Source of the DNA: Candidatus Aerophobota bacterium
GTDB taxonomy: Bacteria; Aerophobota; Aerophobia; Aerophobales; AE-B3A
Reading direction: 5' to 3'
NCBI GenBank assembly: GCA_030616535.1
Contig: JAUWXE010000003.1
Span: 1-36,856 of the forward strand
Length of the DNA: 36,856 nucleotides
How positions within the stretch are numbered: the stretch's first letter is position 1; the number at the start of each line of letters is the position of its first letter. Shown here one piece after another: positions 2,182-30,434 of this stretch. The position numbers and the translations under genes were made by a program. The notes beneath the pieces were generated by a model. The model was not told where the DNA came from, searched no databases, and saw only the letters and a program-made list of their open reading frames with translations.

Positions 2182-2211
2182 TCGACAAAAAATAAAAATA
2201 TGTTAACATAT
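2182..2211 (+). promoter_or_regulatory. Putative gntR promoter overlapped by a 14-bp palindromic operator
   Basis: TCGACA (2182-2187), 16-bp spacer, TAACAT (2204-2209) with an extended -10 TG. Perfect palindrome ATATGTTAACATAT (2198-2211) with a GT-TA-AC core like HutC-subfamily operators. Confidence 0.55.
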
Positions 2212-2274
2212 AAAATAGATTATGATATTATTCTTTCGTGGCGCAAGGATGTATATGAGAAAAAGGAGAGATCG

Positions 2275-3006
2275 GTGCCAAGGAAAGTCCTTAAAGACTC
2301 CAAGATTCCTTTATATCATCAGATAAGGGAGGATTTACGAGCCCGCATAGAGGAAGGAGAATGGCTTTCAGGGGAGCTTATTCCTGCAGAAAAGGAACTA
2401 TGTGCCGAATATAAGGTGAGCAAAATAACGGTCTTAGAGGCAATAAAGGGCCTTGTAAGAGAGGGACTGCTTTACCGAAAACAGGGCAAAGGAACATTTA
2501 TGGCTAAACCTAAGCTAGAGCAAAGTCTTAATAGGTTTTATAGTTTCACTGAAAGTATGCGGCAAAAAGGACTCGAACCAGAACAGAGGATATTAAAAGT
2601 AAAGTTTACTGAGGCTGACAAGCATTCTGCAAAACATCTTAGGATTAGAAAGGGAGAGAAGATCACTGAAATAGAAAGATTAAGATTAGTGAATGGCGAA
2701 CCCTTCTACCTAGAAACAATTATGATTCCAGTTAAGTTATGCCCTAATTTACACCTAAAAGACATTAGCTCCAAACCCCTGAATGATATATTAAGGAATG
2801 AATATAAGATACCTTTAATTAGAGCAAAAGAGTGCTTCGAGCCAATTATTGTCGACAGTTACGAAGCTCAAATGCTCGGCGTAAAGGATGGCGCACCTGC
2901 CCTGCTGCTAGAACACACTACTTATACCACGAAAAACCAGACAGTACTTTTCAGCAAGGGAATAATTAGAGGAGATCGGTGTAGGTATTATACCGAGCTT
3001 GAATAA
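2275..3006 (+). CDS. GntR-family transcriptional regulator, HutC subfamily (wHTH + UTRA)
   Basis: IPLYHQI...IPAEKEL...YKVSKITV..AI..LVREGLLYRKQGKGTF, then a UTRA domain ending RGDRCRY. Start moved to GTG 2275 after AGGAG (ORF track gives 2200). Confidence 0.93.
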   Translation: MPRKVLKDSKIPLYHQIREDLRARIEEGEWLSGELIPAEKELCAEYKVSKITVLEAIKGLVREGLLYRKQGKGTFMAKPKLEQSLNRFYSFTESMRQKGLEPEQRILKVKFTEADKHSAKHLRIRKGEKITEIERLRLVNGEPFYLETIMIPVKLCPNLHLKDISSKPLNDILRNEYKIPLIRAKECFEPIIVDSYEAQMLGVKDGAPALLLEHTTYTTKNQTVLFSKGIIRGDRCRYYTELE

Positions 3007-3277: not shown

Positions 3278-3532
3278 ATGATGCATTTAGAGAGAAAAGA
3301 TAAGGTGGATATCTCTGACCAAATCGGAGCATGTACGGATTTTATGCCTAGGACCCGCAATGAAAGTATCTATGATGCTATTACCGCTGCGTATAGGGCA
3401 GAATTTGCAGGACTTGAGTTATTTCCTACAAAGGATCAGGCTGTCATGTTACATGAAAGTCTGTTGAGGAGATTAATTCTCCAAGCTAGGAGGTGCACAC
3501 AATGGGCTTCCAAATTCATGCAGGTGAGGTAA
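3278..3532 (+). pseudogene. Short ORF, possibly an N-terminal remnant of a xylose-isomerase-like TIM-barrel protein
   Basis: SIYDAITAAYRAEFAGLELFP resembles the 'EAI..A...GF.GVEL' start of AP-endonuclease-2-type barrels, but the ORF is only 84 aa. It is preceded by a 21-aa ORF (3216-3281) with a strong RBS and ATGA overlap. Confidence 0.3.
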
Positions 3533-5838: not shown

Positions 5839-5897
5839 TGAACAGGGAGGAAAAAAGAATTTTCGAGTGAACTAATAATGTGACTGAGGAGGTGATG

Positions 5898-7931
5898 ATG
5901 GTTAACAATGTACTAACTAATAGGAATGCAGGAAAGAGGATAGGGGATTTTTTCCGAGAGATGAACGTCGATAACCCGTTTTGCGAAGGACTGGCTGAAA
6001 CATTCGGTTTCGGGTTGGGATACGACAGGGTTAAACACGAAGAATGTTTCCAGGATCTCAAACTTCATGCTGTTTCAAACCGGGGATCTAAGCAGATTAC
6101 AGAACAGGTTTGGAGAAATAGTACAGAATGTCTGGAAATCAGAGTTGAATACGAGCTCTTTCCAGAGCACAATGCGTTGAAATATCAGGGACGCATTCAC
6201 AATATCGGTGATAAACCCATACCACGAGTAAAAGATCTACACACGGTGCAATGGGGCTTTCCTGTTTCTACTATTGGACCACCCACAATCCACGGAGCGG
6301 GCGGAGGGATGAAGGATAACTTTTACCCACCCCCCTCATATCGTAGGTTTGATACCACCTTAGTTGAGTCGCGTTATGGTGATGGATTGATCGTTGGCTC
6401 AAGGTTGGGGCGATCCTCCAATGCATACCTTCCTTTCTTCGTTGTGAGCAATGGTGCTGATTCGCACGGGATCTTTTTTGCCCTTGGTTGGTCAGGAAAC
6501 TGGAAGGCAAAATTCCAATTGCATGAGACCAACCAGAACTCGCAACAGTTTCTTATTAAGGCATGGTTACCCGCGGTTGATCTGATGCTCATGTCTGGGG
6601 AGGAAATACCAATCCCGGAGGTTTTAATAGGCTTATATGATGGATCTGCTCTTAATGGAATGAATGCACTGCGTCGAACCATTTACGAGAGGTATGTTCC
6701 CTTACTGGCGGGCAAGAAAGTTGTTCCTTTAACTGGATTTGGTAGCTGGTTCGCTTACAATGGTATAGTTGGTGCTCCCAGAATTAATGAGCACAGCCTA
6801 AAAAAACAGGTAGATACGGCCGCAGAGATAGGCTGCGAGTACTTTGAGGTTGACGACGGTTGGGAGGTTGGCTGGCAGGAGGGTCTAGGATTCAATGAGC
6901 GAAGAATGGATTGGGTAGCCGATGAGGCGAAATTCCCTTTCGGTCTTGATAAATTTGCAAAGTATGTTGAAGACAAAGGGATGAAGTTTGGTCTCTGGCT
7001 TGATCTTGCTCGAACCACTCGACGATCCAATTTGCTCCAGGAACATCCTGAATGGGTGATCTGGTCAGAAAAGGATCCAGATAGAGGCCTTGTTAACTTC
7101 GGTCTGTCACAGGTTCGTGAGTGGGCAAAAGGTATTTTTAGTGAACTGGTTGAAAAGTACCATATGCAGTGGGTAAGAAACGATTACAACGTGGATCCCG
7201 AGTTCCAATGGACCAAATATGATCCTCCAGAGCGTAAGGGCATAACAGAGATCAGACACATAGAAGGTCTCTATGAGGTTATGGAGTGGGTTCTGAAGAA
7301 TTATCCCTCGTTGTGCGTTGAGCAGTGTGCAAGCGGAGGACGGATGATAGATTTGGGGACTCTCCGCCGAGCACATATGGTTTTTGTCAGTGATCACACA
7401 ATCAGCGCGGATATCTGTCGGTATCATCTCTCAGGGGCTAGCTGTTTCTTGCCATCCATACTGCTCCATACTGATCTTTCTCACCATACTGAGGCGTACC
7501 CCGATGTGTTCTACCTGAGCCGCTTCGGTGGTGCTTTAGGCATTGGTGATGACATTGCAAGATGGTCTCCGGTTTTGCAAGAGAAGGCTAAAAAGATGAT
7601 AGGTATATATAAATTGATCCGACATTTTCTTGCAGGTGATTTCTATCCGGTGTTCTCCCAACCTGTTTCGATAAGGGAATGGGATGGTTGGCAGTTCCAC
7701 GATCCCTCTTCTGATTCAGGCATAGTAGTAGTGTTTAGGGTGCAGAGCACACAGGCACAGAAACTGGTTAAGCTATCTGCACTCGATCGTCACAAGAGCT
7801 ATTCGTTGACTAACCTACTTATCAGTCAAGAAACGGTAGTTTCCGGCCAGACACTTCAGGACGAAGGTTTTGCAATTAGTCTTGAATGTGGTGAAGCGGA
7901 AATTTGGCGCTATCAGCCGTCCACGGGATGA
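5898..7931 (+). CDS. GH36 alpha-galactosidase-like glycoside hydrolase
   Basis: GRSS...LPFF, GWSGNW, EYFEVDDGW, KFPFGL, GMKFGLW, WVRNDYN (nucleophile Asp position), EQCASGG..IDLG, VSDHT (acid/base Asp position), GDFYP. RBS GAGGAGG precedes ATG 5895/5898 (ORF track gives 5880). Confidence 0.88.
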   Translation: MVNNVLTNRNAGKRIGDFFREMNVDNPFCEGLAETFGFGLGYDRVKHEECFQDLKLHAVSNRGSKQITEQVWRNSTECLEIRVEYELFPEHNALKYQGRIHNIGDKPIPRVKDLHTVQWGFPVSTIGPPTIHGAGGGMKDNFYPPPSYRRFDTTLVESRYGDGLIVGSRLGRSSNAYLPFFVVSNGADSHGIFFALGWSGNWKAKFQLHETNQNSQQFLIKAWLPAVDLMLMSGEEIPIPEVLIGLYDGSALNGMNALRRTIYERYVPLLAGKKVVPLTGFGSWFAYNGIVGAPRINEHSLKKQVDTAAEIGCEYFEVDDGWEVGWQEGLGFNERRMDWVADEAKFPFGLDKFAKYVEDKGMKFGLWLDLARTTRRSNLLQEHPEWVIWSEKDPDRGLVNFGLSQVREWAKGIFSELVEKYHMQWVRNDYNVDPEFQWTKYDPPERKGITEIRHIEGLYEVMEWVLKNYPSLCVEQCASGGRMIDLGTLRRAHMVFVSDHTISADICRYHLSGASCFLPSILLHTDLSHHTEAYPDVFYLSRFGGALGIGDDIARWSPVLQEKAKKMIGIYKLIRHFLAGDFYPVFSQPVSIREWDGWQFHDPSSDSGIVVVFRVQSTQAQKLVKLSALDRHKSYSLTNLLISQETVVSGQTLQDEGFAISLECGEAEIWRYQPSTG

Positions 7932-8242: not shown

Positions 8243-9520
8243 ATGTTGCATAAGTCTATTGGTGTCCAAGCAATAGGGATATTCATAATATCTCTGCTTA
8301 TTTGCTCCAGCGCAAGTGCTGTGAAAATTACCGTTTGGGATCAATACACCGCACCTGATATGTCACCTGCTGTGGACAAGTTGAATGCTCTTTTCGAAAA
8401 AGCAAATCCTGATATTCAAATTGAGAGAGTGGCGATGAGCGGAGAAGATATGAGGAAAGTTCTTAAGACCGCTTTGTTGGCAGGAGAAAAGCTGGATGTT
8501 GTTTACACTGAGGTTGGTCCGGGTCATATGGGTTTGCTTGCGCGAGCTGGTCTGTTGATTGATTTGACAGAGGTGTATGAGCGATATGGATGGACTGAAC
8601 GGGTGTATGAATTTCCAAGAACCATAGCGACATTTGATGGAAAAATTTGGGGAATTGGAAATGAATTAGAGTATTTAACAACCTACTACAACAAAGATGT
8701 ATTCCAGGAACTAGGACTTGAGATACCCAATAGTTATGAAGAATTGATCTGGATTTGTGAAAAGCTCAAATCTAAGGGATATATTCCATTTGGTTTCGCA
8801 AGTAAAGACTATTGGACTTCTGTGCATCCCTTTGCCGTTTTTGTAAACCTTCTGATTCCTAAAGATGAGTTGGATGAAATTCTCCTCGAAAAGGACAAAT
8901 GGGATCATCCTGGTTTGGCTCGAGCACTCGAGATATGGTCTATCGAGTTTCCGCAAAAGGGATACTTTTCAAAAGACTTTCAAGCCTTAGGTTACAACGA
9001 CGGAAATATGCTTTTTTATACTGAAAAAGCACCTATGCGTCTTACTGGAACATGGCTACTTGGAGATATCATGGAAAATGTGAAAACTTTCGAACCCAGT
9101 AGTTTCTTATTCCCCCAAATCAAAAAAGATATACCGGTTCGAGTCCCTATGGTGTGTGGTTCTGGCTACTGTGTTCCAAAAGCAACTCTGTATCCTGAAG
9201 AATGTTTCAAATATCTAGATTTCTTACTGTCCGACGAAGCTGGTAAAATATGGATAGAAGAAGCCAAACTTGTTCCACCTTTTCCTGTGAGCCTTGAAGG
9301 TCTTGAATTAGCTCCTTTACAAAAGGACGTAATACGGTCACTTTTCGAAATTGATGGTGGTCACTTTATTGATATTTACAGTACAGCAAGATGGTGGAAC
9401 GAACTCTGTTCCTTGATGCAGGGAATTTATGCTGGCAAAGAAACAGTAGACGGAACTATTAACAAGCTGAATAGGATATGGAAAGAAGAACGAGAAAAAG
9501 GACTTTTGAGATCTAGATAA
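8243..9520 (+). CDS. Sugar ABC transporter substrate-binding protein (CUT1)
   Basis: Signal peptide ending ASA, then ITVWD, FEKANPDIQIE, YYNKDVFQELGLEIPNSYEEL, TGTW. Strong RBS AAGGAGG. Confidence 0.92.
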   Translation: MLHKSIGVQAIGIFIISLLICSSASAVKITVWDQYTAPDMSPAVDKLNALFEKANPDIQIERVAMSGEDMRKVLKTALLAGEKLDVVYTEVGPGHMGLLARAGLLIDLTEVYERYGWTERVYEFPRTIATFDGKIWGIGNELEYLTTYYNKDVFQELGLEIPNSYEELIWICEKLKSKGYIPFGFASKDYWTSVHPFAVFVNLLIPKDELDEILLEKDKWDHPGLARALEIWSIEFPQKGYFSKDFQALGYNDGNMLFYTEKAPMRLTGTWLLGDIMENVKTFEPSSFLFPQIKKDIPVRVPMVCGSGYCVPKATLYPEECFKYLDFLLSDEAGKIWIEEAKLVPPFPVSLEGLELAPLQKDVIRSLFEIDGGHFIDIYSTARWWNELCSLMQGIYAGKETVDGTINKLNRIWKEEREKGLLRSR

Positions 9521-9653: not shown

Positions 9654-10532
9654 ATGAGGAGATTAAAATTACTGGCAAGGCAAAGTGGGATTTACTGTTT
9701 TATAATACCTGCCTTGGCTCTGTATGTAGTGTTTATTTTTTATCCTATGATTCATACATTATTGCTAAGTTTTCACGAGTGGAATGGTGCCACAATAACA
9801 AAGAAATACGTGGGTTTTGCTAACTACGTAAAGCTTATCTACGATGATATATTTTTAATTTCCTTAATGCACAACGTAATTTGGTTAATGTTAAGTCTTG
9901 CTCTACCAGTTAGCCTTGGTTTGCTATTAGCATTGTTGTTGAGCGAGAAAACAAAAGGGAGGGAGCTTTTGACAATTATTTACTATCTTCCCGCTATGAT
10001 TTCTCTTGTTGCTGTAGGGATAATATGGAGCCTAATTTATCACCCACAGTGTGGCATTTTGAATGGAGTACTTAGATTGATTGGACTAGATTTTCTTACT
10101 CGTCCGTGGCTCGGTCAAACCCCTTGGGTTTTGCTAGCCCTGATAGCTGCTGGAGCATGGACCTACTTTGGATTCTGTACTCTACTTTTCCTTGCTGGAT
10201 TACAAAATATTGATCCTCAGTTGTACGATGCGGCTAAAGTCGATGGAGCTGGTAGATTACAGCAATTCTTGCACATTACAGTCCCTCTACTGAGGAACGT
10301 AACTACATTAGTTGTTATATGGACTACTATAGGTTCATTTAAAGTCTTTGACATTGTGTGGGCGATGACTCGGGGAGGTCCGCATCACTCCACAGAAGTC
10401 GTTACCAGTTGGTTATATAAGCAAGCATTTGAAGCATCACGAGTAGGCTATGGAGCTGCTATATCAATATGCTTACTTGCCATTATTCTCATTTTAACAC
10501 TTGCATATTTATCTTATGCTGAGAGGGAGTAA
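9654..10532 (+). CDS. Carbohydrate ABC transporter permease (MalF/UgpA-like)
   Basis: YVGFANY, hydrophobic helices, EAA-loop LYDAAKVDGA, MTRGGP, GYGAAIS. Confidence 0.93.
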   Translation: MRRLKLLARQSGIYCFIIPALALYVVFIFYPMIHTLLLSFHEWNGATITKKYVGFANYVKLIYDDIFLISLMHNVIWLMLSLALPVSLGLLLALLLSEKTKGRELLTIIYYLPAMISLVAVGIIWSLIYHPQCGILNGVLRLIGLDFLTRPWLGQTPWVLLALIAAGAWTYFGFCTLLFLAGLQNIDPQLYDAAKVDGAGRLQQFLHITVPLLRNVTTLVVIWTTIGSFKVFDIVWAMTRGGPHHSTEVVTSWLYKQAFEASRVGYGAAISICLLAIILILTLAYLSYAERE

Positions 10533-10533
10533 A

Positions 10534-11382
10534 TTGAAAAATAAGCTATCTTACAAGTCATCAGAAAAGCTAGTAGCTGTGGCTAAATACGGTTTTTTAG
10601 CGTTCGTCACCTTGTTGGCACTGGCTCCCGTCGTTTGGGTTTGGATCGGTGCATTCAAGAGTCATCTTCAAATATATTTAAACCCATTTGGATTTCCAGA
10701 GACTTTTAATTATAGGAACCTCATAAACGCTTGGACAATAGGAAGATTTTCAGTGTATTTTAAAAATAGTGTAATCATGACACTAGCAACGGTGGTTATA
10801 GTCGTATTATTATCTTCCTTGGCAGGATTTGCTTTTGGCATGTTTAATTTTCGGGGAAATAAACCAATCTTTTATTTTATGCTAATTGGCCTCCTGATGC
10901 CTCCACAAGCATTTATTATCGGTCTTTATTACCTACTGAAAGATATTGGTCTTCTTAATACATACTGGGCCTTTATTCTTCCTAGTGCTGGTGCAAATGT
11001 GTGTTTTGGAACATTTATGATGCGAGCTTATTTTAAGAGTTTACCTAGAGAGCTACTAGATTCAGCATATCTGGACGGATGTTCAAAGCTTCAATCATTT
11101 ATTTACATAATGGCTCCGTTAGCGAAACCAGCAATGATAGCTCTTTTTATCTTCCAAACTGTATGGAATTGGAAAGATTTTTTTCTTGCCTTTATGCTTA
11201 TCCACAAGGAGTCGTTGAGGCCAATTACTGTGGGCCTGATCTTCTTTAAAGGGCGATATACATCAGACTTTGGTTTGATATTATCAGGAGTCACCATCGC
11301 TACTTTTCCTTTAATAGTTGTCTATTTGGTCATGCATAAACGCTTTGTTAAAGGGGTAATCGAAGGAGCTCTTAAAGGCTAA
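10534..11382 (+). CDS. Carbohydrate ABC transporter permease (MalG/UgpE-like)
   Basis: YFKNS, LPRELLDSAYLDGCS, C-terminal FVKGVIEGALKG. TTG start after GAGGGAG (ORF track gives 10501). Confidence 0.93.
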   Translation: MKNKLSYKSSEKLVAVAKYGFLAFVTLLALAPVVWVWIGAFKSHLQIYLNPFGFPETFNYRNLINAWTIGRFSVYFKNSVIMTLATVVIVVLLSSLAGFAFGMFNFRGNKPIFYFMLIGLLMPPQAFIIGLYYLLKDIGLLNTYWAFILPSAGANVCFGTFMMRAYFKSLPRELLDSAYLDGCSKLQSFIYIMAPLAKPAMIALFIFQTVWNWKDFFLAFMLIHKESLRPITVGLIFFKGRYTSDFGLILSGVTIATFPLIVVYLVMHKRFVKGVIEGALKG

Positions 11383-11596: not shown

Positions 11597-13150
11597 GTGT
11601 ACTTTCTGGGATTAGATGTGGGAACTTCTGTGGTCAAAGGTGCAATTTTTACCGAGAAAGGTCAGCCGGTAGCGTTAAACCGATTAGAATACCAATTAAA
11701 TTACCCTCATCCAGGATGGATTGAAATTGATCCCGATCTTGTTTGGGATAAAGTTAAAAAGCTGATTTCAGAGTTAGTCGGGAGCAGCAATGTTAAACCT
11801 GCGGAAATTGTAAGTATTTGTCCTTCTGTTCTGGGAGAAGCTATTGTTCCCATAAACAAGAAGGGAAAACCTCTCTATAACTTCATAGAAGGATGGGATG
11901 GAAGGGGAAACTACTACGAAGAAGAAATATCGTTTCTGGAAGAAAAGATTGGGAGATATAAAATCTACGACATATCTGGCGTTACTTTATCTTCACTGGC
12001 TTCTATCCATAAAATACTCTGGTTAATAAAGCATAAACCAGAAATCTACGAGAAAACTTTCAAATTTCTTTTTATGGAAGACTTCATTATTGCTAAACTG
12101 ATCGGTGAATATTTTGTAAACTATTCTTTGGCTTGCCGTTCTATGCTTTTTGACAGGGTAGAGAAAAAATGGTCGGAAGAAATTCTTGGGGAAGCCGCTC
12201 TTAGTCCAGACCTTTTTTCATTACCTGTACCCTCAGGAACAATAGTTGGATCAGTGGCGGAGTTTGTTGCCAGCGAGCTTGGATTGAGCGAGAAAACCAA
12301 AGTGGTCACAGGAGGCCATGATCAATGTTGTGCTGCTTTAGGAGTAGGGATAATTTCAGAAGGTCCGGCTTTTAACGGGATGGGGACGGTGGAGGTAATA
12401 GCTGGAGTTACCGAAAGGCCGAGATTAGAGCATCACCTTTCAGATAGTAATATCGCCAATTATTGTCATGTATTAAAAGATAAGTATCTTCTTTTGGGCG
12501 TCAACCCGACTTTTGGCATGGCGTTGAAATGGTTTAAGGATGTATTTGTAAAAGGAAGAAATTCTATTGAGAACAGAGAGGGTAGAGGCATTTACGAGAT
12601 TATCATCGAGGAAGCCGAACAATCTTCACCGGGAGCTAAGGGTTTATTCTTTCTTCCTCATCTTCAGGGAACTTTTTCTGGAAGTTTTCAAGCTCTCAAC
12701 CCAAACTCTAGAGCTGCCTTCATAGGTCTTAGGTCCTTTCATAAGATTGGTGATATGGTGAGGGCTATCCTGGAAGGTGTATGTTTTGAAACTAGAAATC
12801 TCATAATTGAGATGGAGAAAGTCTTAGAAATTACCGATTTGAGAGTGTCTGGTGGACCTACTAATTCAGATTTATGGATGAAGATTAAGGCCGATATTTC
12901 TCAAAAGAAGCTGTTGGTTCCCGAAAAAAGTGAGGCTGGATTGATAGGAACACTAATTTTATCCACTATAGCTACCGGTGTTTATAAGGATACCGAAGAG
13001 GCTATATTGAGTATTTTTAAAGTGAAAAGATCTATAACACCAGAAGAAAAAATTGGGGTATTTTACACTTCTCGGTTTAATATCTTCAAAAAAATATATC
13101 CAACTTTATTTGAAATCTACGAACAGATGGGTTCTCTGAATAATCGATAA
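11597..13150 (+). CDS. FGGY-family carbohydrate kinase (xylulokinase-like)
   Basis: LGLDVGTS, PHPGWIEIDP, GGHDQ, GTVE, FLPHLQG, RAILEGV, VSGG. RBS AGGAGG precedes the GTG start. Confidence 0.92.
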   Translation: MYFLGLDVGTSVVKGAIFTEKGQPVALNRLEYQLNYPHPGWIEIDPDLVWDKVKKLISELVGSSNVKPAEIVSICPSVLGEAIVPINKKGKPLYNFIEGWDGRGNYYEEEISFLEEKIGRYKIYDISGVTLSSLASIHKILWLIKHKPEIYEKTFKFLFMEDFIIAKLIGEYFVNYSLACRSMLFDRVEKKWSEEILGEAALSPDLFSLPVPSGTIVGSVAEFVASELGLSEKTKVVTGGHDQCCAALGVGIISEGPAFNGMGTVEVIAGVTERPRLEHHLSDSNIANYCHVLKDKYLLLGVNPTFGMALKWFKDVFVKGRNSIENREGRGIYEIIIEEAEQSSPGAKGLFFLPHLQGTFSGSFQALNPNSRAAFIGLRSFHKIGDMVRAILEGVCFETRNLIIEMEKVLEITDLRVSGGPTNSDLWMKIKADISQKKLLVPEKSEAGLIGTLILSTIATGVYKDTEEAILSIFKVKRSITPEEKIGVFYTSRFNIFKKIYPTLFEIYEQMGSLNNR

Positions 13151-13228
13151 GGAGAAAATGAGATATATCTCATTATTAACCAAAAATACATGTTCCCATT
13201 GGGGACATTGCAAAGGATGGAGAAAAAA

Positions 13229-14587
13229 ATGGAAGCAACATATGATCCTTTAGTTTTCAACAGTGAGTATGAAAGTGTCCATAAAGAAAAGTTTATTATC
13301 GCTACATATTATGTGGAACACAAAGCGGAAGGTGAGATTTTGGACCATTTGAATGTTATCCAGCCTATGCTGCTACAGGGTTCTACCGGGACCTGGCAAA
13401 AAATTCCTGAAGATACTGCAAAAATAAGAGAACTTTTTACCCCTAAGGTCATCGGATATTATCCTGTTCCCACCGAAAGCGAAAACCATAAGAAGGCGAT
13501 TGTAAATATGGCCTTACATACAGAATCTTTCTCTCACAATTTTCCCATGTTGTTGATAGCTATAGCCGGAAATATTCTTTTCTTTCCTGGAGTAATTAAA
13601 TTGGTGGGTATTCATTTTCCTAAAAGCTTTTGCCAGGAGTTCACCGGACCCAAATTTGGTATCTCTGGCATCCGAAAACTCTTAGGAGTTCCTGAAAGAC
13701 CCTTCGTATTAACCATCATTAAACCCAAAATGGGCATGACACCGCAAGAAACTGCAGAACAGGCATACAAAGCTGCAATCGGGGGATCGGATATGGTTAA
13801 AGATGATGAGATGTGTAGCGAGACCTTTAACTGTTCCTTTAAAGATCGAGTCAGGATGGTTAGCCAGGCATTGAAAAGAGCTTATGAGGAGAACGGGCAA
13901 AAGACTCTCTACTTTGTGAGTATCACTGACAGACCCAGTAAGATGAAGCACAAAGCCAAACTAGCTATAGAAATGGGGGCTGGCGGCCTTCTGGTGGGCT
14001 TTACCGCTGGTTACTCTGTCATTCGAGATCTAGCTAAGGATTCGGATATTAACGTACCCATACTTATGCATCCTACCAGTGTAGCTTCCCAGACTTCAGT
14101 CTTTAGATTCCCTGTTATCTGTAAGCTAGCACGATTGGCCGGTGCTGACTTAGTGCTCAATGCTACCCGCTGGGCTACTTTGCCCTTTGTATCTTTAGAG
14201 GATGGCGTAAGAGCTAATCAAATCCTGCAGGCTCCTATGTATCATATTAATCCATCTCTTTCTGCTCCCAGTGGAGGAATGCACCCTGGTCTGGTTCCTG
14301 AATTAGTGAAAGAATGTGGTCCCGATATTTTTATTCCTGCAGGAGGAGGTATTCACGGTCATCCTAAAGGTACAACCGCTGGAGCAAAAGCTATGCGACA
14401 GGCTATTGAGGCTACTATGAGAGAAATATCACTGGAAGAAGCCTCTAAGGCTCCGGATAACCGAGAGCTGAAAGATGCAGTGGAGAAATTTGGAATCTTT
14501 CATCGTCCCACCACTAGATGGTTTAGAACAGTTTCAGAGTGGGAGAATAAAACTTCTATATTGACAGGTTACGATTACAGTAAGTAA
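13229..14587 (+). CDS. RuBisCO-like protein (form IV RLP)
   Basis: STGTW, AGN, GPKFGISGIR, IIKPKMG, KDDE (carbamylated Lys and Mg ligands), SGG and GGGIHGHP are present. Equivalents of R295, H327 and K334 are missing. ATG 13229 follows GGAG (ORF track gives 13190). Confidence 0.93.
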   Translation: MEATYDPLVFNSEYESVHKEKFIIATYYVEHKAEGEILDHLNVIQPMLLQGSTGTWQKIPEDTAKIRELFTPKVIGYYPVPTESENHKKAIVNMALHTESFSHNFPMLLIAIAGNILFFPGVIKLVGIHFPKSFCQEFTGPKFGISGIRKLLGVPERPFVLTIIKPKMGMTPQETAEQAYKAAIGGSDMVKDDEMCSETFNCSFKDRVRMVSQALKRAYEENGQKTLYFVSITDRPSKMKHKAKLAIEMGAGGLLVGFTAGYSVIRDLAKDSDINVPILMHPTSVASQTSVFRFPVICKLARLAGADLVLNATRWATLPFVSLEDGVRANQILQAPMYHINPSLSAPSGGMHPGLVPELVKECGPDIFIPAGGGIHGHPKGTTAGAKAMRQAIEATMREISLEEASKAPDNRELKDAVEKFGIFHRPTTRWFRTVSEWENKTSILTGYDYSK

Positions 14588-14619: not shown

Positions 14620-15603
14620 ATGAGAAAAATTAAGTTCTCGGCTGGTTTAGCAGCATTTGGAAATGGAATCGACCGCTATGTAAACTTGGGATACAAAGAA
14701 AGTGTAACTGTTGAAAAAATGATTGAATTGGCTGGTGCTGTAGAAGACCTGGAGGGTGTTGAACTTGTAGAAAACTGGCATGTTAATAAAAATAATTTAA
14801 ATGCGATCAAAGAATGTTTAGAAAAATATAGGTTTAAAGTATCAATGGTCATTCCAGATCTTTGGGCAACTAAGAAATGGGCTATGGGAAGTCTAAGTGC
14901 AAAGGATGCAAAAACAAGGGAGGAGGCTAAGGAAACTATTATTAATGCTATAGAAATGGCTAAGAGGATTGATTGTGATTTAATCGATGTTTGGTTTGGC
15001 CAGGACGGATGGGATTACTCCTTTGAGGTTGACTATCTCCAATCCTGGCAATTTTTAGTAGAGGGATTGAGGGAAGTTGCTGATTATGACGCCGGTATAA
15101 GAATTGGGATAGAGCATAAAATTAAAGAGCCGCGATGCTTTGCTCATGTAGGCTCCATTGGGAAACTTATGCTCCTTATCAAAGAAGTAGAAAGACCCAA
15201 TATAGGAGTAGTATGTGATTTTGGCCACTGTTTTGAGGGTTATGAGAATCTGGGACAGGTACTGGCTCTAATGAAACATTATGGGGTAAAACTGTTTCAT
15301 ACTCACTTCAATGATAACTATCGTCTATGGGATGACGATCTGATTTCTTGTTCTGTACATACCATTGAATACATTGAAGCTTTCTATTGGTTACAAAAGG
15401 TAGATTACCAGGGTTGGTACTCCCTTGATATTTTCCCCTTCCGTATTGATAGCATCAAAGCTGCTACGGAAAGCATAAAATGGATAAAAGCTCTGGCAGG
15501 AGTGGTAGATAAAGTTGGAGTTGATAAGATTGATGAGGTCATCAAAGATGGCGATGCCTGTGATGCTCAGAAGCTCATTCGAGAGGCAATATTTGGCTTT
15601 TAG
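14620..15603 (+). CDS. Xylose/L-rhamnose-isomerase-like sugar isomerase (TIM barrel)
   Basis: WFGQDG, EHKIKEPR, DFGH, HFNDN..WDDD and SLDIFP match the two-metal ligand pattern of aldose-ketose isomerases. Confidence 0.85.
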   Translation: MRKIKFSAGLAAFGNGIDRYVNLGYKESVTVEKMIELAGAVEDLEGVELVENWHVNKNNLNAIKECLEKYRFKVSMVIPDLWATKKWAMGSLSAKDAKTREEAKETIINAIEMAKRIDCDLIDVWFGQDGWDYSFEVDYLQSWQFLVEGLREVADYDAGIRIGIEHKIKEPRCFAHVGSIGKLMLLIKEVERPNIGVVCDFGHCFEGYENLGQVLALMKHYGVKLFHTHFNDNYRLWDDDLISCSVHTIEYIEAFYWLQKVDYQGWYSLDIFPFRIDSIKAATESIKWIKALAGVVDKVGVDKIDEVIKDGDACDAQKLIREAIFGF

Positions 15604-15674: not shown

Positions 15675-16640
15675 ATGGAAAAAAGGCTACCAAGAGAGAA
15701 ATTGATTGAAATGTATAGGAAAATGTTAAGGATTAGACACTTTGAAGATAGAATTTACCGACTCTTCTTAAGCGGGACTATGCCAGGGACTATTCATCTT
15801 TCCCAGGGACAGGAGGCAATAGCAGTAGGAGTATGTGCCAATCTCAGTAAGGATGACATAATTACCGGCACCCATCGATCTCATGGTGAAGCTCTGGCTA
15901 AAGGTGTTTCTATGAAATCATTGATGGCCGAACTCTTTGCTCGGTCTAACGGTTGTTGCAAGGGGAAAGGCGGCTCGATGCATGTGGGTGATATTGATGT
16001 AGGAATGCTTCCGGCTATAGCTATAGTGGGAGGAGGAATTCCTGTGGCTACCGGTATAGCACTGGCCTTTAAGATGAAAAGATTAGATCGGGTAGCCGTT
16101 TCCTTCTTCGGAGACGGAGCTTCCAATGAAGGTGCTTTCCATGAGGCGATCAATATGGGAGCTATTTGGGATCTACCCGTCATCTATGTTTGTGAGAACA
16201 ACCTCTATGGAGCCTCTACTCATGTTAGCAAGGTAATGAAGTTAAAAGATATCGCTAATCGAGCTTTCTCTTACGGGATACCGGGGGTGGTGGTGGACGG
16301 CAATGATGTAGTGGCGGTATATGAGGTAGCAAGGAAGGCTATAGATAGAGCAAGGAAAGGTGAGGGTCCAACGTTAATTGAGTGCAAGACCTACCACATA
16401 GGAGGTCATTCTCGTTCTGATCCCAGGCAATATAGAGATAAGGAAGAAGAAAAGAGGTGGCTGGCCAAGGATCCCATCCCCAGAATGAAAAAGAAATTGA
16501 TTGCGACGAATATTTTGAGCTCAGAAAAATCAGAGAATATAGAGGCCGCAATTGAAAAAGAAATAGACGAGGCTATAAAATTTGCCCAGAGTAGTCCCTC
16601 GCCGAAACCAGAAGATGCTCTAAGGGATGTATTTGCTTAA
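15675..16640 (+). CDS. TPP-dependent dehydrogenase E1 alpha subunit (AcoA/PdhA-like)
   Basis: HLSQGQEA, THRSHG, GKGGSMH, TPP motif GDGASNEG...ENN, GHSRSDP. Confidence 0.93.
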   Translation: MEKRLPREKLIEMYRKMLRIRHFEDRIYRLFLSGTMPGTIHLSQGQEAIAVGVCANLSKDDIITGTHRSHGEALAKGVSMKSLMAELFARSNGCCKGKGGSMHVGDIDVGMLPAIAIVGGGIPVATGIALAFKMKRLDRVAVSFFGDGASNEGAFHEAINMGAIWDLPVIYVCENNLYGASTHVSKVMKLKDIANRAFSYGIPGVVVDGNDVVAVYEVARKAIDRARKGEGPTLIECKTYHIGGHSRSDPRQYRDKEEEKRWLAKDPIPRMKKKLIATNILSSEKSENIEAAIEKEIDEAIKFAQSSPSPKPEDALRDVFA

Positions 16641-16656
16641 AGTTAAGGAGAATAAA

Positions 16657-17670
16657 TTGAGAAATTTAACTGTAGCGGAAGCTTTAAGAGAAGCGATAAG
16701 AGAAGAGATGAGGAGGGACGAGTCAGTCTTTTGTATTGGAGAGGATATAGGTATCAAAGGAGGCTGGGGAGGGGCTTTTACCGTTACTCTTGGGTTGTCG
16801 GAAGAATTTGGACACGAAAGGATTCTAGATACCCCCATCTCGGAGCTTGGTATAGCTGGTATAGCTGTAGGGGCAGCTCTTGCTGGAATGAGACCCATAG
16901 CCGATGTAGAATACGGAGATTTTATCTTCTTGGCCATGGATCAGCTCATAAATAATGCAGCTAAACTCCGATATATGTCAGCCGGCAAGTTAAAGGTTCC
17001 TATGGTTATGCGAATTCCCGTAGGAGCTTCAGGCAGAGGAGCCCAACATGCTCAATCCCTAGAGTCTTATTTTGTTCATGTTCCTGGACTCAAAGTTGTC
17101 TGTCCTTCTAATGCCTATGATGCCAAAGGACTTCTAAAAACAGCTATAAGGGACGATAATCCCGTAATGTTCTTTGAACACAAGCTTCTATACGGCGCTA
17201 AAGGAAGAAGGGAAGGTATAGATGCTCGAGGAGAAGTACCGGAAGAAGAGTATTTACTTCCTTTCGGAGTAGCTGAGATAAAAAGAGAGGGAGAGGATGT
17301 AACAGTAGTGGCCACCTTAAGAATGGTTTACGCAGCGTTATCGGCCGCTGAGGAACTGGAAAAAAGGGGGATAAGCGTGGAAGTGATAGATCCTCGAACT
17401 CTCACTCCTTTGGATTTAGAAACGATTTTAAAATCTGTTCATAAAACAAATAGGTTGATTATTGTTCATGAGGATAATTTAACTGGGGGATGGGGAGCAG
17501 AGTTAGCCACTCGGGTAACTAGTGAAGCTTTTGACTGGCTAGATGTTCCTGTAACGCGGATTGCTGCCCCAGATACCCCTGTTCCCTTTGCTCCCATAAT
17601 GGAAAATTATTTTGTCCCGAACAGTGAAGATATAGTTAGAACTGCAGCGAGTGTATTGGGTAAAAGTTAA
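16657..17670 (+). CDS. TPP-dependent dehydrogenase E1 beta subunit (AcoB/PdhB-like)
   Basis: GEDIG, DTPISE, DQLINNAAK, AQHAQS, FFEHK, IDPRTL.PLD. TTG start after AAGGAG (ORF track gives 16627). Confidence 0.93.
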   Translation: MRNLTVAEALREAIREEMRRDESVFCIGEDIGIKGGWGGAFTVTLGLSEEFGHERILDTPISELGIAGIAVGAALAGMRPIADVEYGDFIFLAMDQLINNAAKLRYMSAGKLKVPMVMRIPVGASGRGAQHAQSLESYFVHVPGLKVVCPSNAYDAKGLLKTAIRDDNPVMFFEHKLLYGAKGRREGIDARGEVPEEEYLLPFGVAEIKREGEDVTVVATLRMVYAALSAAEELEKRGISVEVIDPRTLTPLDLETILKSVHKTNRLIIVHEDNLTGGWGAELATRVTSEAFDWLDVPVTRIAAPDTPVPFAPIMENYFVPNSEDIVRTAASVLGKS

Positions 17671-17701: not shown

Positions 17702-18610
17702 ATGGCACTTATCCCAATGAAAAAAATGTTAGTGAAGGCCCAAAAGGAAAGATACGCAGTAGGGTACTTTGAGTCTTGGAATTTGGAGTCTCTGCAGGCA
17801 ATTATTAATGCAGCAGAAGAGGTGTGCTCATCAGTAATCGTTGGATTCAGCGGTAGATTCTTAGCCGAGCCGGGCAGGTTAATGCCCGAAAAAATCGAAT
17901 ATTACGCTTCCATGGGAAAGGTGTTCGGTGAAAACACCTCGGTCCCAACAGCCTTAATTTTGAATGAAGCGTCTGATTTTGCATGGATCGAAAAGGCCAT
18001 AGAACTTGGCTTTACCGCTGTAATGTTTGAGGATGAATCATTGTCTGCCGTAAAAGAGGTGAATTTTATTAAAAAGGCAGTTAAAATAGCTCATTCAAAA
18101 GGTGTTTCTGTAGAAGCTCAATTGGGAATTTTGCCAGTAGCAGAAAAAAGAGGAGTCACCGAGGAGATAGCAAAAGATATTTCTTTAACCGATCCCGAAA
18201 AAGCTGCTCAATTTGTAAAAGAAACTGGTATTGATGCCCTGTCGATTTCTGTCGGCAATATTCACTCTTTAACCAAAGGTAAGGCGGAAATTGATTTTGA
18301 TAGGCTTAAACACATTAGAGAAGTGGTAGATATACCCTTAGTTTTACATGGAGGAACAGGACTTGCAGATGATACCGCGAGAAGAGCAATCAAATTAGGA
18401 ATATGTAAAATCAATATTGGAGCTTTACTTAAACAGACTTTCATTAAGGGGATAAAAAAGAAGCTTGGTACTTACTTTAACGGCTATTCAGACCCCCATG
18501 AATTTTTAGGATCAGGCAAAGAAAGGGATATATTAATGGCTGGTGCGCTAGAGATGAGGGATGTAATTAAAGAAAAAATGAAAGTTTACGGCTCATCTGG
18601 CAGAGCATAA
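17702..18610 (+). CDS. Class II fructose/tagatose-bisphosphate aldolase family protein with an atypical active site
   Basis: YAVGYF, GVSVEAQLG, TDPEKA..FV.ETGIDAL..SVGNIH, PLVLHGGTG, KINI. The canonical HLDH is replaced by ILNE. ORF track gives start 17651. Confidence 0.85.
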   Translation: MALIPMKKMLVKAQKERYAVGYFESWNLESLQAIINAAEEVCSSVIVGFSGRFLAEPGRLMPEKIEYYASMGKVFGENTSVPTALILNEASDFAWIEKAIELGFTAVMFEDESLSAVKEVNFIKKAVKIAHSKGVSVEAQLGILPVAEKRGVTEEIAKDISLTDPEKAAQFVKETGIDALSISVGNIHSLTKGKAEIDFDRLKHIREVVDIPLVLHGGTGLADDTARRAIKLGICKINIGALLKQTFIKGIKKKLGTYFNGYSDPHEFLGSGKERDILMAGALEMRDVIKEKMKVYGSSGRA

Positions 18611-18636: not shown

Positions 18637-19263
18637 ATGAAAATGAAGATGAGAGCAGCTATTTATCACGGGATTCAGGATGTGAGATTGGAAGAAGTAG
18701 AAATTCCTCAGATTAACTCTGATGAAGTATTAGTGAAAATAAAGGTGGCTTTAACTTGTGGTACGGATCGGAAGATGTACCTCAGAGGTTATCATCTAGT
18801 TAATCCTCCCTTTGTTTTTGGCCATGAATTTGCTGGAGATATCGTAAAGGTGGGAGCTAATGTAAGAAATTTCGAAGAAGGTATGAGAGTAGTAGCAGCA
18901 AATTCTGCACCCTGCAATAAATGTTTTTACTGTAAGATAGGTAGGGAAAGTTTATGTAAAGATCTAACCTTCAGACTTAACGGTGCCTTTGCTGAATATG
19001 TAAAAATCCCTAGAGATATCGTAGAACAGAATTTACTGGAAATTCCGTGCAACATCTTTTACAAAGAGGCAGCTCTGGTAGAACCCTTGGCCTGCGTTGT
19101 ACACGGGATACAAGAGTCAAACATAAGGCTAGCCCAACTTCCACATTTTCAAAAAAAATGTGGTGTTTATGGTGGTTTGCGAGTTCATTCAGTCACTATA
19201 TTTGAAGAGTGCCATGTTTTTATGGGTTTCATAACCTCGGAGGGAATACCAAGATTCTTATAG
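18637..19263 (+). pseudogene. 3'-truncated Zn-dependent (MDR) sugar-alcohol dehydrogenase
   Basis: CGTD, GHEFAG, C..C..C...C and EPLAC are present. Homology stops at ~19131, just before the GxGxxG Rossmann motif; the remaining ~43 codons are unrelated. Confidence 0.85.
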
Positions 19264-19457: not shown

Positions 19458-20534
19458 TTACGGAACTACTAGACCTTTAATAGCATTGTCCTTGCGCTCT
19501 TTAATGGTTTTCAATGCTGTCAGAACATCATCTAGAGAAAATCTGTGGGTAATCAAAGAGCTAACATCAACAAGTTTCTTATCGATAGCCTGAAGAGCGG
19601 TGGGCCAGGTAAAAGGTGCCAGCCAGGAGAATCGGATGGTCTTATCCCATAAAAGTGAGTCAAGAGCGGGAACTTTGAGAGTATCATTCGGGCCGGGAAG
19701 GCCAAAGTAAACTACGACAGCCTTTCTTCCAGAAATAGTGAGGGCATCCTGCATTGGCTTTAAAGCCCCGGTGGCACAGATAACTCTATCAGCCATCCTT
19801 CCTTCAGTTAGCTCCTTAATTCTTTCTTTTAAATCATCAATGCAATAGGGGGATTTTTTTTCTTTGGTATTTAAAATGAAATCTGCTCCCAGCTTCTTTC
19901 CCAGTTTGAGTCGATAGTCCCTCGTGCCAACCAGCACTACAGTTCCAGCTCCTCTTGATTTGGCCATTTGAGTCATCATCAGCCCTATGGGGCCGGGACC
20001 AAAGATAACGCAGAAATCACCCAGAGAAATGTCGAGATTCTCAATCCCATAGGTGGCGCAGGATAAAGGCTCGGTAAAGGCTGCCTGCTCAAAGCTAACC
20101 CTTGAGGGAAGTTTATGGACCCCGGTATATTTAGATTTAACATATTCGGCAAAGGCACCATGGGTGGAGACCCCAATCACACTTTTATTTTCACAGAGAT
20201 TAACCATTCCTCTGGCACAAACTCCGCAGGCGCTGCAGTACTGAACCGGGTCCACCGTAACTCGATCCCCAGCCTCGAATAATCCTTTCTCCTTAGGAAT
20301 TCTCCCCACCTCGACCACCTCTCCAGAAAATTCGTGGCCTAAAATTAACGGACCCTTACCGGTGAGTGTTTCCAGAGGACTTAACCCCCAATAGTAAGCA
20401 ATATCCGATCCACAGATACCACAGGCTTTGACCTTGACCAGAACTTCATCTTCTAAAGGAGAGGGAATAGGAACCTCTTCCAATCTCATCTTTTCTGGCT
20501 CATAAAAAACCTGCGCTTTCATCATTTTAGCCAT
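19458..20534 (-). CDS. Zn-dependent polyol/sugar dehydrogenase (MDR family)
   Basis: CGICGSD, GHEFSG, CSACGVC..C, EPLSC, GPGPIG, LITHRF. Full length. Confidence 0.92.
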   Translation of the reverse strand: MAKMMKAQVFYEPEKMRLEEVPIPSPLEDEVLVKVKACGICGSDIAYYWGLSPLETLTGKGPLILGHEFSGEVVEVGRIPKEKGLFEAGDRVTVDPVQYCSACGVCARGMVNLCENKSVIGVSTHGAFAEYVKSKYTGVHKLPSRVSFEQAAFTEPLSCATYGIENLDISLGDFCVIFGPGPIGLMMTQMAKSRGAGTVVLVGTRDYRLKLGKKLGADFILNTKEKKSPYCIDDLKERIKELTEGRMADRVICATGALKPMQDALTISGRKAVVVYFGLPGPNDTLKVPALDSLLWDKTIRFSWLAPFTWPTALQAIDKKLVDVSSLITHRFSLDDVLTALKTIKERKDNAIKGLVVP

Positions 20535-20555: not shown

Positions 20556-21470
20556 TTATTTCCATTTAAGTTTTGTAAAAAGGTTATCCAGGTGTCTTTT
20601 GCAGTCAGCAGTAATCTCCCAGGCGTTTGGCCAAAAGCAAAGATCAATAGACCACCACCCGGAATTATAGCCAGCCTCAACCAGAGTTGGCAGAAGGGCC
20701 TCAAAGTTCAGCACTCCTTTACCAAAAGGTACATGGGCACTGGTCTCATTGTCGTGAAGGGTATTGTCTGAGTCAATTAAGTGGACATGCCCGATTTTAC
20801 CCTTTAATAGACGGGCAAACTCAATTTCACCACCGGGAAGCTTGTCTAATGGAGGTGTCTGTTTAGCTGCAACTGCCGAGCACATATGAGCATGACAGCT
20901 ATCAAAGAGAAACTTAAAATTTGGCCGATCAACTTCATTGAGCAGTCTCATGACCTCATGGGGTTTATTGAAGATAAACCCCGGTTCAAATTCCCAGACC
21001 ACCAGTGTATCTACCTCGGCAGCCTTATCGGCACAGCTTCTGAACATGTTGACTACTCTATCCCAGGTAGTCTGGTAGTCAAGATGTTCCGGGAAAGGAG
21101 TGTGGGTGACGGTATCTACCCGAATAGCTTTGATCCCACAATCCACACAAAACTCCAGGCTTCGATCAAACATTTCCTGGTACTGTTTGACCACCTTGGG
21201 ATCGCCCTCGGCAAAGGGAAGCGACCAAAGATCAGCGGCGTAGGCAGAAACTTCCAGTCCCTTTGATTCTAACATCTCCATTAGTTGGCCTCTGCTCTTT
21301 TTGTTGGGATATAGATCAGGATGAGCATGGGGTTTGAATCCGCCTAATTCAACTCCATCAAATTTAAGAGCCTCCAGCCGCTTAGCCACCTCTTCCAGTT
21401 CTACTGGATGATCAGCATAGGGACCGATAGCATAAGCCCAGCTACCAATGGAGATTTTTGGAAAGATCAT
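20556..21470 (-). CDS. Sugar-phosphate isomerase/epimerase (xylose-isomerase-like TIM barrel)
   Basis: FDGVELG, WEFEPG, FDSCH, HVHLIDSD, HVPFGKG, GY..WWSID. RBS AAGGAGG. Confidence 0.85.
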   Translation of the reverse strand: MIFPKISIGSWAYAIGPYADHPVELEEVAKRLEALKFDGVELGGFKPHAHPDLYPNKKSRGQLMEMLESKGLEVSAYAADLWSLPFAEGDPKVVKQYQEMFDRSLEFCVDCGIKAIRVDTVTHTPFPEHLDYQTTWDRVVNMFRSCADKAAEVDTLVVWEFEPGFIFNKPHEVMRLLNEVDRPNFKFLFDSCHAHMCSAVAAKQTPPLDKLPGGEIEFARLLKGKIGHVHLIDSDNTLHDNETSAHVPFGKGVLNFEALLPTLVEAGYNSGWWSIDLCFWPNAWEITADCKRHLDNLFTKLKWK

Positions 21471-30227: not shown

Positions 30228-30434
30228 CTAGCCGGCCTCCTCTGCTTTTTTTTTCTTTTCTTTCACGATGAATGCCTGTCTACCTTTATAATAACCACAT
30301 TTTGGGCAAGCAAAGTGAGGCAGTGTGGGAGCCTTACACTGAGGACAAGCTGCAAGACGTGGGGATACGAGCTTGTCTTGCGAGACTCTACTTCTTTTTC
30401 GTGATTTTGAACGTTTTTTTTTAGGAACACCCAT
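30228..30434 (-). CDS. rpmF: 50S ribosomal protein L32
   Basis: MGVPKKKRSKSR, CPQC...PH..CPKCGYYKG. Immediately upstream of plsX. Confidence 0.96.
   Translation of the reverse strand: MGVPKKKRSKSRKRSRVSQDKLVSPRLAACPQCKAPTLPHFACPKCGYYKGRQAFIVKEKKKKAEEAG

Follow-up and report, generated by a model that had tools for sequence, protein, structure and literature searches.

What remains of an aldolase when the residues that define its chemistry have been replaced and the fold around them has been kept? This question is raised by a gene in a stretch of 36,856 nucleotides from Candidatus Aerophobota bacterium (GenBank assembly GCA_030616535.1, contig JAUWXE010000003.1), which as a whole is referred to below as the window. 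The gene (17702..18610, + strand) encodes a 302-aa homologue of class II aldolases of the PF01116 family, designated here P0001. The original prediction, made from the sequence alone, was that the catalytic and metal-binding motifs of this protein had been rewired for a changed metal site or reaction, perhaps an epimerase- or decarboxylase-like one or one with a different substrate, and that the gene was not decaying. The sequence comparisons considered below confirm P0001 as a member of a large PF01116 clade, which appears to be of single origin and kept under selection rather than in decay. We call it the N-E clade, after Asn88 and Glu89 of P0001, and its canonical relatives with Asp and His in these columns are called D-H. 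The association of N-E genes with a sugar kinase and a thiamine pyrophosphate (TPP)-dependent E1 points to an undescribed route of sugar breakdown.

The reading frame of P0001 is intact, as had been claimed, and runs from an ATG at 17702 to a stop codon at 18608-18610 without internal stops. An AAGGA box is located 8 nt upstream of this ATG, the stop codon of the preceding E1 beta gene ends at 17670, and an in-frame GTG at 17651 is a possible alternative start. PF01116 covers residues 6-301 with 231.6 bits against a cut-off of 25.5; apart from it, the Pfam scan of P0001 gave just a sub-threshold match to PF02581 and no match to PF08013, the family of GatZ/KbaZ/UxaE-type relatives. The motifs were assigned by residue-by-residue HMMER alignments with the solved class II fructose-bisphosphate (FBP) aldolases 7nc7, 3q94 and 7ncc, and all three agree with the replacements originally read from the sequence. 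ILNE (86-89) stands in place of the canonical HLDH, MFEDE (108-112) in place of MIDAS or MIDGS, which changes M.D.S to MFED, and EAQLG (138-142) in place of EAELG. GNIHS (185-189) corresponds to GSVHG, and LHGGTG (215-220) and KIN (236-238) are the same as in the canonical enzymes. Asn88 is found at the position of the catalytic Asp, Glu89 at that of the first Zn-ligand His and Gln140 at that of the buried-site Glu; the two other His ligands, H188 and H216, are retained, and K236 and N238 align with the canonical sites.

In the class II aldolase of E. coli, as described in a passage of PMC11194214, Zn is bound by His110, His226, His264 and Glu174, Glu182 of a flexible loop deprotonates dihydroxyacetone phosphate (DHAP), and Asp109 protonates the forming hydroxyl. 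P0001 has Lys in the column of the loop Glu; E147, E153 and E154 are present in the same loop. This catalytic loop (149-156) has a predicted local distance difference test (pLDDT) score below 50 in an AlphaFold2 model of P0001 built with 28 clade sequences, the mean pLDDT of which is 89.4. Using Foldseek, the model was matched to the class II aldolase TIM barrel with template modelling (TM) scores of 0.81-0.93 and E-values down to 1.4e-27, the top matches being SqiA, FBP aldolase (FBA) and AgaY.

The replacement of the D-H pair is not peculiar to this gene. All 120 best homologues of P0001 in an index of 5.8 billion proteins have N-E in these columns, one of them being 89% identical to P0001 and the others 54% identical at most, so that the close homologues with HLDH which would have spoken for a solitary variant were not met among them. 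Among 50%-identity representatives, which were searched exhaustively, 5694 proteins matched at E <=0.001, and the best 150 of these were aligned with P0001 and the host's own canonical aldolase; the 152 rows comprised 58 N-E, 90 D-H and 4 other sequences. After 16 rows outside 270-330 aa had been dropped, a maximum-likelihood tree was constructed from 136 rows, with midpoint rooting only. All 44 N-E rows and two degenerate rows formed in it a single group of 46 (support of 87 in the SH-like approximate likelihood ratio test, SH-aLRT), the sister of which is a sequence with D-E at the two positions; D-H sequences with D or S at position 24 and W26 are located just outside the group. P0001 belongs to a core group of 40 rows with E24 and W26 (support 95). 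The N-E/D-H label requires 3 changes on this tree, and none of 500 shuffles gave a number as low.

The conservation of individual positions was compared in 256 full-length members of 255-345 aa, which included 163 N-E, 89 D-H and 4 other sequences. N88 and E89 are invariant in the N-E sequences (163/163 for each), as are D and H in the D-H ones (89/89). Beyond the motifs of the original prediction, the N-E clade is distinguished by Y22 (93%, A in D-H), E24 (153 of 163, or 94%, with D in a basal sub-clade; N in D-H), W26 (160/163, or 98%) and F49 (93%), both variable in D-H, and G48 (98%, Q in D-H). Positions 106 and 112 are variable in N-E and occupied by S in D-H, while position 189 is V, I or L in the former and G in the latter. 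An L-P pair at positions 144-145 (L in 144 and P in 139 of the 163) is absent from D-H, and the N-E clade also has insertions at 52-63 and 266-274. P0001 carries Y22, E24, W26, G48, F49, N88 and E89 together with both insertions. Other positions have become loose in the clade. Position 140 is E in 73, Q in 59, N in 10 and another residue in 21 of 163 N-E sequences, whereas it is E in 86/89 D-H sequences; the loop-Glu column is acidic in 31/163 and 69/89, respectively. The second His ligand, at position 188, is H in 142 and E in 19 of the 163, and H in 82/89 D-H sequences. E138, T163, D178, G185, H216, G217, G233, K236 and N238 are common to both types.

These data exclude chance or a sequencing error, since N-E is found in 120/120 best homologues and 163/256 collected members, and they exclude a one-off allele or decay, since there is no break in the frame and the motif does not vary among clade members. 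The view that the gene is not decaying, which was part of the original prediction, is thus upheld by the invariance of N88 and E89, by their occurrence in one clade of the tree and by a separate HLDH aldolase in the same genome. The latter is encoded on host contig C77 and has HLDH, MIDGS, EAELG, GSIHG and LHGGSG; as there is a canonical copy, and no PF00676 match on that contig, a housekeeping aldolase role for P0001 was rejected. That P0001 is nevertheless an ordinary FBP or tagatose-bisphosphate (TBP) aldolase, or a decaying one-off, is what the database labels of its relatives ('ketose-bisphosphate aldolase', 'class II fructose-bisphosphate aldolase') would suggest. We regard this as highly improbable, because, in addition to the canonical copy, the intact frame and the clade-invariant motif, P0001 lies below the cut-offs of all 22 listed NCBIfam models (best NF009497, 237 bits against 423). 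Moreover, E24 and G48 occupy the positions of N35 and S61 of E. coli FBA, which we take to bind the second phosphate of the substrate, i.e., that of glyceraldehyde-3-phosphate.

The distribution of conserved and changed positions suggests that the part of the active site binding a DHAP-type phosphate, carbonyl and hydroxyl survives in the N-E clade, in which the DHAP-phosphate loops have the forms GNxH and LHGG[ST]G, and that the pocket for the other half of the substrate has been rebuilt. The residues of canonical proton transfer have been replaced or are no longer conserved, and E24 and Y22 are the sole newly conserved candidates for their role. That the catalytic Asp and a His ligand have been exchanged and the loop Glu has lost its conservation might also indicate a pseudo-enzyme, which, as a subunit without catalysis or with a regulatory function, would bind a sugar phosphate or serve as a scaffold for E1, and the N-E gene is indeed often wedged between the genes of E1 beta and E2. 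In our opinion, such a function is improbable: the conservation of E24, W26, N88 and E89 at active-site strands and the retained phosphate and metal motifs fit an active site under selection.

The clade is widespread. At least 594 genomes of GTDB species encode a relative, as found by a degenerate-pattern scan of one genome per species. Among the matches listed, N-E relatives belong to Acidobacteriota, Planctomycetota, Verrucomicrobiota, Bacteroidota, Chloroflexota, Actinomycetota, Spirochaetota, Omnitrophota, Latescibacterota, Gemmatimonadota, Clostridia and Bathyarchaeia, and cultured carriers such as Pollutibacter soli and Aquisphaera insulae exist. The clade is apparently undescribed, as no description of it or its cassettes was found in the literature searched; nor was a paper found there on Atu3167 of Agrobacterium, a tagatose-6-phosphate epimerase of the PF01116 family. 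A Protein Atlas search gave solely generic 'class II FBP aldolase family' clusters.

In which metabolic setting does such a protein work? P0001 is encoded directly downstream of a pair of genes for a TPP-dependent E1 (15675-17670). E1 alpha (15675..16640, +) matches PF00676 with 300 bits and TIGR03182 with 375 bits, below the cut-off of 393.85, and its translation contains the GDG...NN motif of TPP binding. E1 beta (16627..17670, +), the start of which overlaps the stop of E1 alpha by 14 nt, matches PF02779 and PF02780 and exceeds the cut-off of NF006667 (380 bits against 321). The same partners recur elsewhere. Counted up to a distance of 10 kb from the N-E gene, the most frequent neighbours in 80 genome loci were a PfkB kinase (50/80), E1 alpha (48/80) and E1 beta (47/80), followed by E2 with lipoyl, E3-binding and acyltransferase domains (30/80 by tblastn, 28/80 by blastp of open reading frames (ORFs)), a cupin of the D-lyxose/D-mannose isomerase type (27/80), a GH38 alpha-mannosidase (25/80 by tblastn, 23/80 by ORF blastp), a DeoR regulator (21/80), a protein of ~700 aa (16/80) and an RpiR regulator (12/80). 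An FGGY kinase was found in 3/80 loci and E3 in 1/80. In the 43 loci that extend for 9 kb or more to both sides, E1 alpha and the kinase were each present in 33. The best solved relative of the partner kinase is E. coli YdjH (PDB 3h49, 183.8 bits), and the cupin matches the D-lyxose/D-mannose isomerase 7nzo with 214.7 bits.

The gene order around N-E varies between phyla. Chitinophagaceae and one metagenome-assembled genome (MAG) of Clostridiaceae have E1a-E1b-NE-E2 and then PfkB, with a cupin before PfkB in Chitinophagaceae and an adjacent E3 in the Clostridiaceae MAG only. The order is DeoR-NE-(URO-D-like)-PfkB-E2-E1a-E1b in Planctomycetota and GntR-E2-E1a-E1b-NE-PfkB in an Anaerolineae MAG; in Terriglobia and Acidimicrobiia, RpiR is followed by NE-cupin-GH38-ADH-RraA-like-E2-E1a-E1b-PfkB, ADH being an alcohol dehydrogenase. 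A URO-D-family (PF01208) protein recurs in or beside cassettes with N-E and with the RuBisCO-like protein (RLP) discussed below, in Planctomycetota and in relatives of the host (examples are L006 10870-12120, L106 6927-8006 and L120 8326-9234). In 4 of 5 tested genomes whose N-E locus lacks E1, E1 beta homologues with 57-61% identity are encoded elsewhere, which neither supports nor refutes a dependence of N-E on E1. Genomes G066-G070 (Acidobacteriota, Planctomycetia, Opitutae) contain 5-12 matches each to the window E1 beta at E <=1e-40, suggesting that this E1 family is used in many separate modules.

The window also encodes, upstream of E1, a form IV RLP with a retained KDDE motif (13190..14587, +; PF00016, PF02788) and a xylose-isomerase (XI)-like TIM-barrel protein (14620..15603, +; PF01261). 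Most RLPs of known function are enolases or isomerases. The nearest NCBIfam model of the window RLP is that of the MtnW enolase, with 294 bits against a cut-off of 409. According to a passage of PMC7325909, the related RLPs of Spirochaetes, Planctomycetes and Moorella are of unknown function. The expectation that N-E would co-occur with this RLP clade was not borne out: neither RLP nor the XI-like protein was found in any of the 80 N-E loci, and N-E was found in 1 of 80 RLP loci. The latter were obtained by aligning the window RLP with four RLPs from relatives and scanning metagenome contigs, and they represent the best 80 of 316 relatives. Their neighbours were E1 alpha (50/80, and all 11 loci extending 9 kb or more to both sides), the XI-like protein homologous to that at 14620-15603 (44/80, 11/11), E1 beta (42/80, 11/11), E2 (25/80, 7/11), RpiR (20/80) and an FGGY kinase (15/80, 3/11); the single N-E gene was in one of the 11 long loci. 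From these counts, there are two cassettes, one composed of a kinase, N-E and E1ab, often with E2, and the other of an isomerase, RLP and E1ab, to which E2 and FGGY may be added. RLP co-occurrence as the defining context of N-E was therefore rejected as a general rule, and the shared E1 clade took its place.

The relationship between the E1 proteins of the two cassettes was established using a tree of E1 alpha with 65 rows: 22 N-E-linked and 22 RLP-linked sequences, each taken at random from 46, that of the window, six sequences from relatives, and 14 other PF00676 genes encoded by five carrier genomes. The cassette E1 alphas, that of the window included, are all in one clade of 53 rows with a support of 98, in which N-E-linked and RLP-linked sequences are interleaved. 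Twelve of the 14 other E1 paralogues are outside this clade, and the two inside it are identical to N-E-linked rows. The tree shows that the partner truly common to N-E and RLP is this clade of TPP-dependent E1 alpha/beta. That the cassette E1 is just the pyruvate dehydrogenase (PDH) of the cell was made unlikely by the 4-11 PF00676 matches in each of the five carriers and by the exclusion of the 12 paralogues; pyruvate is possible as a substrate of the cassette E1.

Relatives from the family or order of the host carry either NE-E1a-E1b or E1a-E1b-RLP. P0001 has matches at E <=1e-40 in 10 of 61 genomes (60 relatives and the host, which is counted), and ten loci from relatives include 6 of N-E type, 39-44% identical to P0001, and 4 of D-H type. 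Three of the N-E loci have the order NE-E1a-E1b, with an intervening URO-D-like gene in one of them, and their E1 proteins are 69-83% identical to those of the window. The RLPs of the relatives, 46-51% identical to that of the window, are on other contigs; RLP is beside E1a-E1b in G009 (same genus), G024 and G007, where the RLP-side E1 proteins are 72-81% (G009, G024) or 56-58% (G007) identical to the window's. The window E1 alpha is 78% identical to the RLP-linked E1 alpha of a same-genus genome. The window, with the order FGGY-RLP-XI-E1a-E1b-NE, resembles an RLP-type cassette that carries, at the 3' end, an N-E gene from another sub-clade. Directly downstream, a truncated Zn-ADH (18637..19263, +) has only the N-terminal GroES-like domain (PF08240 only); a genome of the same family encodes an intact ADH of 344 aa (L109 5602-6633), with the N-terminal part of which it shares 91% identity, and the homology stops near 19130 and is followed by unrelated sequence. 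This truncation suggests a rearrangement at the locus, with a breakpoint probably right after the N-E gene.

What, then, may the N-E protein do? We tentatively favour, with somewhat less than even confidence, the reading that it has given up the retro-aldol step and makes the carbonyl compound on which E1 acts. A ketose 1-phosphate made by the kinase would be bound via the retained DHAP-type site, as the YdjH-like kinase and the retained DHAP-phosphate loops suggest. It would be held on a His2-Glu metal site, probably favouring Mn, Fe, Co or Mg over Zn, with E24 and/or Y22 as the putative acid/base, and would be converted through a metal-bound enediolate to an acyloin or dicarbonyl by isomerisation or by beta-elimination of phosphate or the 4-OH. 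E1/E2 would then cleave this product to acyl-CoA, and the role of N-E would parallel that of RLP in the sister cassettes. Candidate reactions are a methylglyoxal-synthase-like elimination of phosphate or elimination of the 4-OH from the ketose 1-phosphate; the candidate substrate of E1 is a 1-deoxy-2,3-diulose or a related dicarbonyl resembling 4,5-dihydroxy-2,3-pentanedione (DPD)/autoinducer-2 (AI-2). This reading is based on the change of the catalytic Asp to Asn, the variable buried-site Glu and the unconserved loop Glu, on the position of N-E in the slot of RLP in the sister cassettes and on the service of E1 proteins with 69-81% identity in both cassettes.

The other possibility to be weighed is that N-E has remained an aldolase which releases DHAP from a ketose 1-phosphate (fructose 1-phosphate or xylulose 1-phosphate, for instance) and forms a pair with the kinase, as YdjI does with YdjH. 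The roles of the residue at position 88 and the loop Glu would have been moved to Glu24, Tyr22 and/or Glu89, the His3 site would have become His2-Glu, and the aldehyde or a product derived from it would pass to E1/E2. L-fuculose-phosphate aldolase, with its Glu73/Tyr113 arrangement, offers a likeness for such a relocated acid/base. This reading, which in our opinion is nearly as likely as the favoured one, is consistent with the kept DHAP-phosphate motifs, K236, N238 and two His ligands. It also draws on several facts that weigh against a non-aldolase reaction, the type of which is, moreover, something that we infer. The N-E clade is nested among YdjI-like aldolases, arising within D-H sequences with W26, and its partner kinase is YdjH-like; in RefSeq, YdjH is annotated as a 1-kinase and YdjI as a 1-phosphate aldolase, and the D-lyxose/mannose isomerase of 27/80 loci completes the classical isomerase-kinase-aldolase triad. 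Ten of the 43 long N-E loci have no nearby E1, so kinase and N-E may suffice alone. In a genome of the same order (G028:C133, L218 6014-8896), a canonical D-H aldolase with HLDH, MFDGS, EAELG and the loop Glu, but with D24 and G48, is encoded behind an ABC transporter and directly before E1a-E1b; because such an enzyme takes this slot, true aldolase chemistry is compatible with the E1 module. The favoured reading is further weakened by the window itself, which has an FGGY kinase, no PfkB and no adjacent E2, and by the fact that gene order does not reveal the sequence of enzyme steps.

Against an aldolase stands the change or loss of conservation of all three canonical proton-transfer or buried-ligand residues, which YdjI left untouched when it changed its substrate. 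We know of no route for glyceraldehyde or glycolaldehyde via a TPP/lipoyl E1-E2, and near-identical E1 proteins serve RLP cassettes that contain no aldolase. Returning to the preferred reading, in which N-E supplies E1 with a carbonyl substrate, it may be extended to a whole pathway: the N-E clade and one RLP clade would be alternative, and here combined, front-ends of a widespread, undescribed sugar-phosphate pathway, where a dedicated TPP/lipoyl E1-E2 cleaves a C-C bond and turns part of the sugar directly into acyl-CoA, the N-E scaffold having been converted to a new reaction. In this full form, the proposal is possible and at the same time rather doubtful.

The cassette of the window is part of a sugar cluster. 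The FGGY-family kinase (11597..13150, +; PF00370, PF02782) is below the cut-offs of xylulokinase (268.8 bits against 380.25) and AI-2 kinase (203.7 bits against 528). It is preceded by the genes of a sugar ABC (ATP-binding cassette) transporter, namely a solute-binding protein (8243-9520, +; PF01547/PF13416) and two permeases (9654-10532 and 10501-11382, +; PF00528). A GntR/UTRA-type regulator (2200..3006, +) with matches to NCBIfam GntR-family models is upstream of the cluster, and the RLP-E1 cassettes of two relatives are also headed by GntR/UTRA regulators. Between the regulator and the transporter, there are genes of a 674-aa DUF6259 protein (3493-5517, +) and a GH36-like glycosidase (5880-7931, +) with weak matches to melibiase and beta-L-arabinopyranosidase models, so that the imported substrate may be a glycoside. 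Upstream of the regulator, a 166-aa fragment of an ISNCY-family transposase (1595-2095, +), corresponding to C-terminal profile positions 210-360 of 368, is a remnant of a mobile element at the edge of the cluster. On the other side, a full-length Zn-ADH (19458-20534, -; PF08240, PF00107), 29% identical to E. coli YdjJ, forms a convergent pair with a second XI-like TIM-barrel protein (20556-21470, -; PF01261). An ADP-forming acyl-CoA synthetase of 701 aa (30421-32526, -), above the cut-off of the acetate--CoA ligase alpha model with 572 bits, could, speculatively, take ATP from acyl-CoA made by E1/E2.

Other components are dispersed in the host assembly (1.08 Mb, 121 contigs, ~81% complete). 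E2 is terminal on contig C72, as is a lipoyl domain on C16, and a PfkB kinase, 36% identical, is on C28. E3 is on C29 (3133-4496, -), where the tblastn match consists of two adjoining pieces in different frames, which may be due to a frameshift or an assembly error. Two more host E1 genes with frames of 794-808 aa (C54 2963-3979, -; C4 1654-2676, +) apparently encode fused E1 alpha-beta.

The results matter for annotation as well as for metabolism. The routine annotation of a PF01116 protein is that of an FBP or ketose-bisphosphate aldolase, and for N-E members it is probably wrong, because the clade lacks the residues defining aldolase chemistry. The E1 clade alternating between N-E and RLP outlines a catabolic module, which was not found described in the literature searched, and the N-E/E1 module provides two testable handles on the function of the orphan RLP clade. 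The neighbours, a D-lyxose/mannose isomerase and a GH38 mannosidase, hint at mannose or lyxose as substrates. If E1 does form acyl-CoA by cleaving a dicarbonyl derived from a sugar, sugars would have a new point of entry into central metabolism.

Among the known systems, class IIb aldolases (B. methanolicus 7nc7 and 7ncc, B. anthracis 3q94, AgaY 1gvf, SqiA 8q5a) share with P0001 the TIM barrel, H188, H216, the LHGG loop and K-x-N in alignments at the level of 34-37% identity; P0001 differs from them in the replacements D to N, H to E, N24E and Q48G, in the unconserved loop Glu and in two insertions. The window E1 proteins are closest to the PDH type (1ni4, 227.6 bits; 1ik6, 304.6 bits), and the cassette E1 often occurs with a lipoyl E2, as in acetoin dehydrogenase and PDH, but it forms its own clade, is embedded in operons of sugar kinases, isomerases and glycosidases and has E3 adjacent in 1/80 loci.

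In methionine salvage, MtnB and MtnW act in succession, an aldolase-fold dehydratase being followed by an RLP enolase. The likeness to the window consists in the combination of an aldolase-like metal enzyme with an RLP, both acting on dicarbonyls derived from a ketose 1-phosphate, and in the best score of the window RLP on the MtnW model. However, MtnB has the other class II aldolase fold (PF00596), the window RLP is under the MtnW cut-off, and no other methionine-salvage genes were seen in the window cluster.

A close parallel for the kinase and N-E pair, which was not part of the original prediction, is the ydj cluster of E. coli, in which, according to RefSeq, YdjH is the kinase and YdjI the 1-phosphate aldolase of L-glycero-L-galacto-octuluronate. 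YdjI (PF01116, PDB 6ofu) has the fold and family of P0001, 30% identity over 290 columns and W26, and part of the 52-63 insertion is apparently common to both, as this stretch aligns with just a 6-residue gap. YdjI retains HWDH, N24 and EAELG, whereas P0001 has ILNE and the other replacements; the ydj cluster is devoid of E1/E2, and its kinase YdjH is of the PfkB family, in contrast to the FGGY kinase of the window. DeoR regulators and Zn-ADHs, on the other hand, recur both in the ydj cluster and in the clusters of N-E genes.

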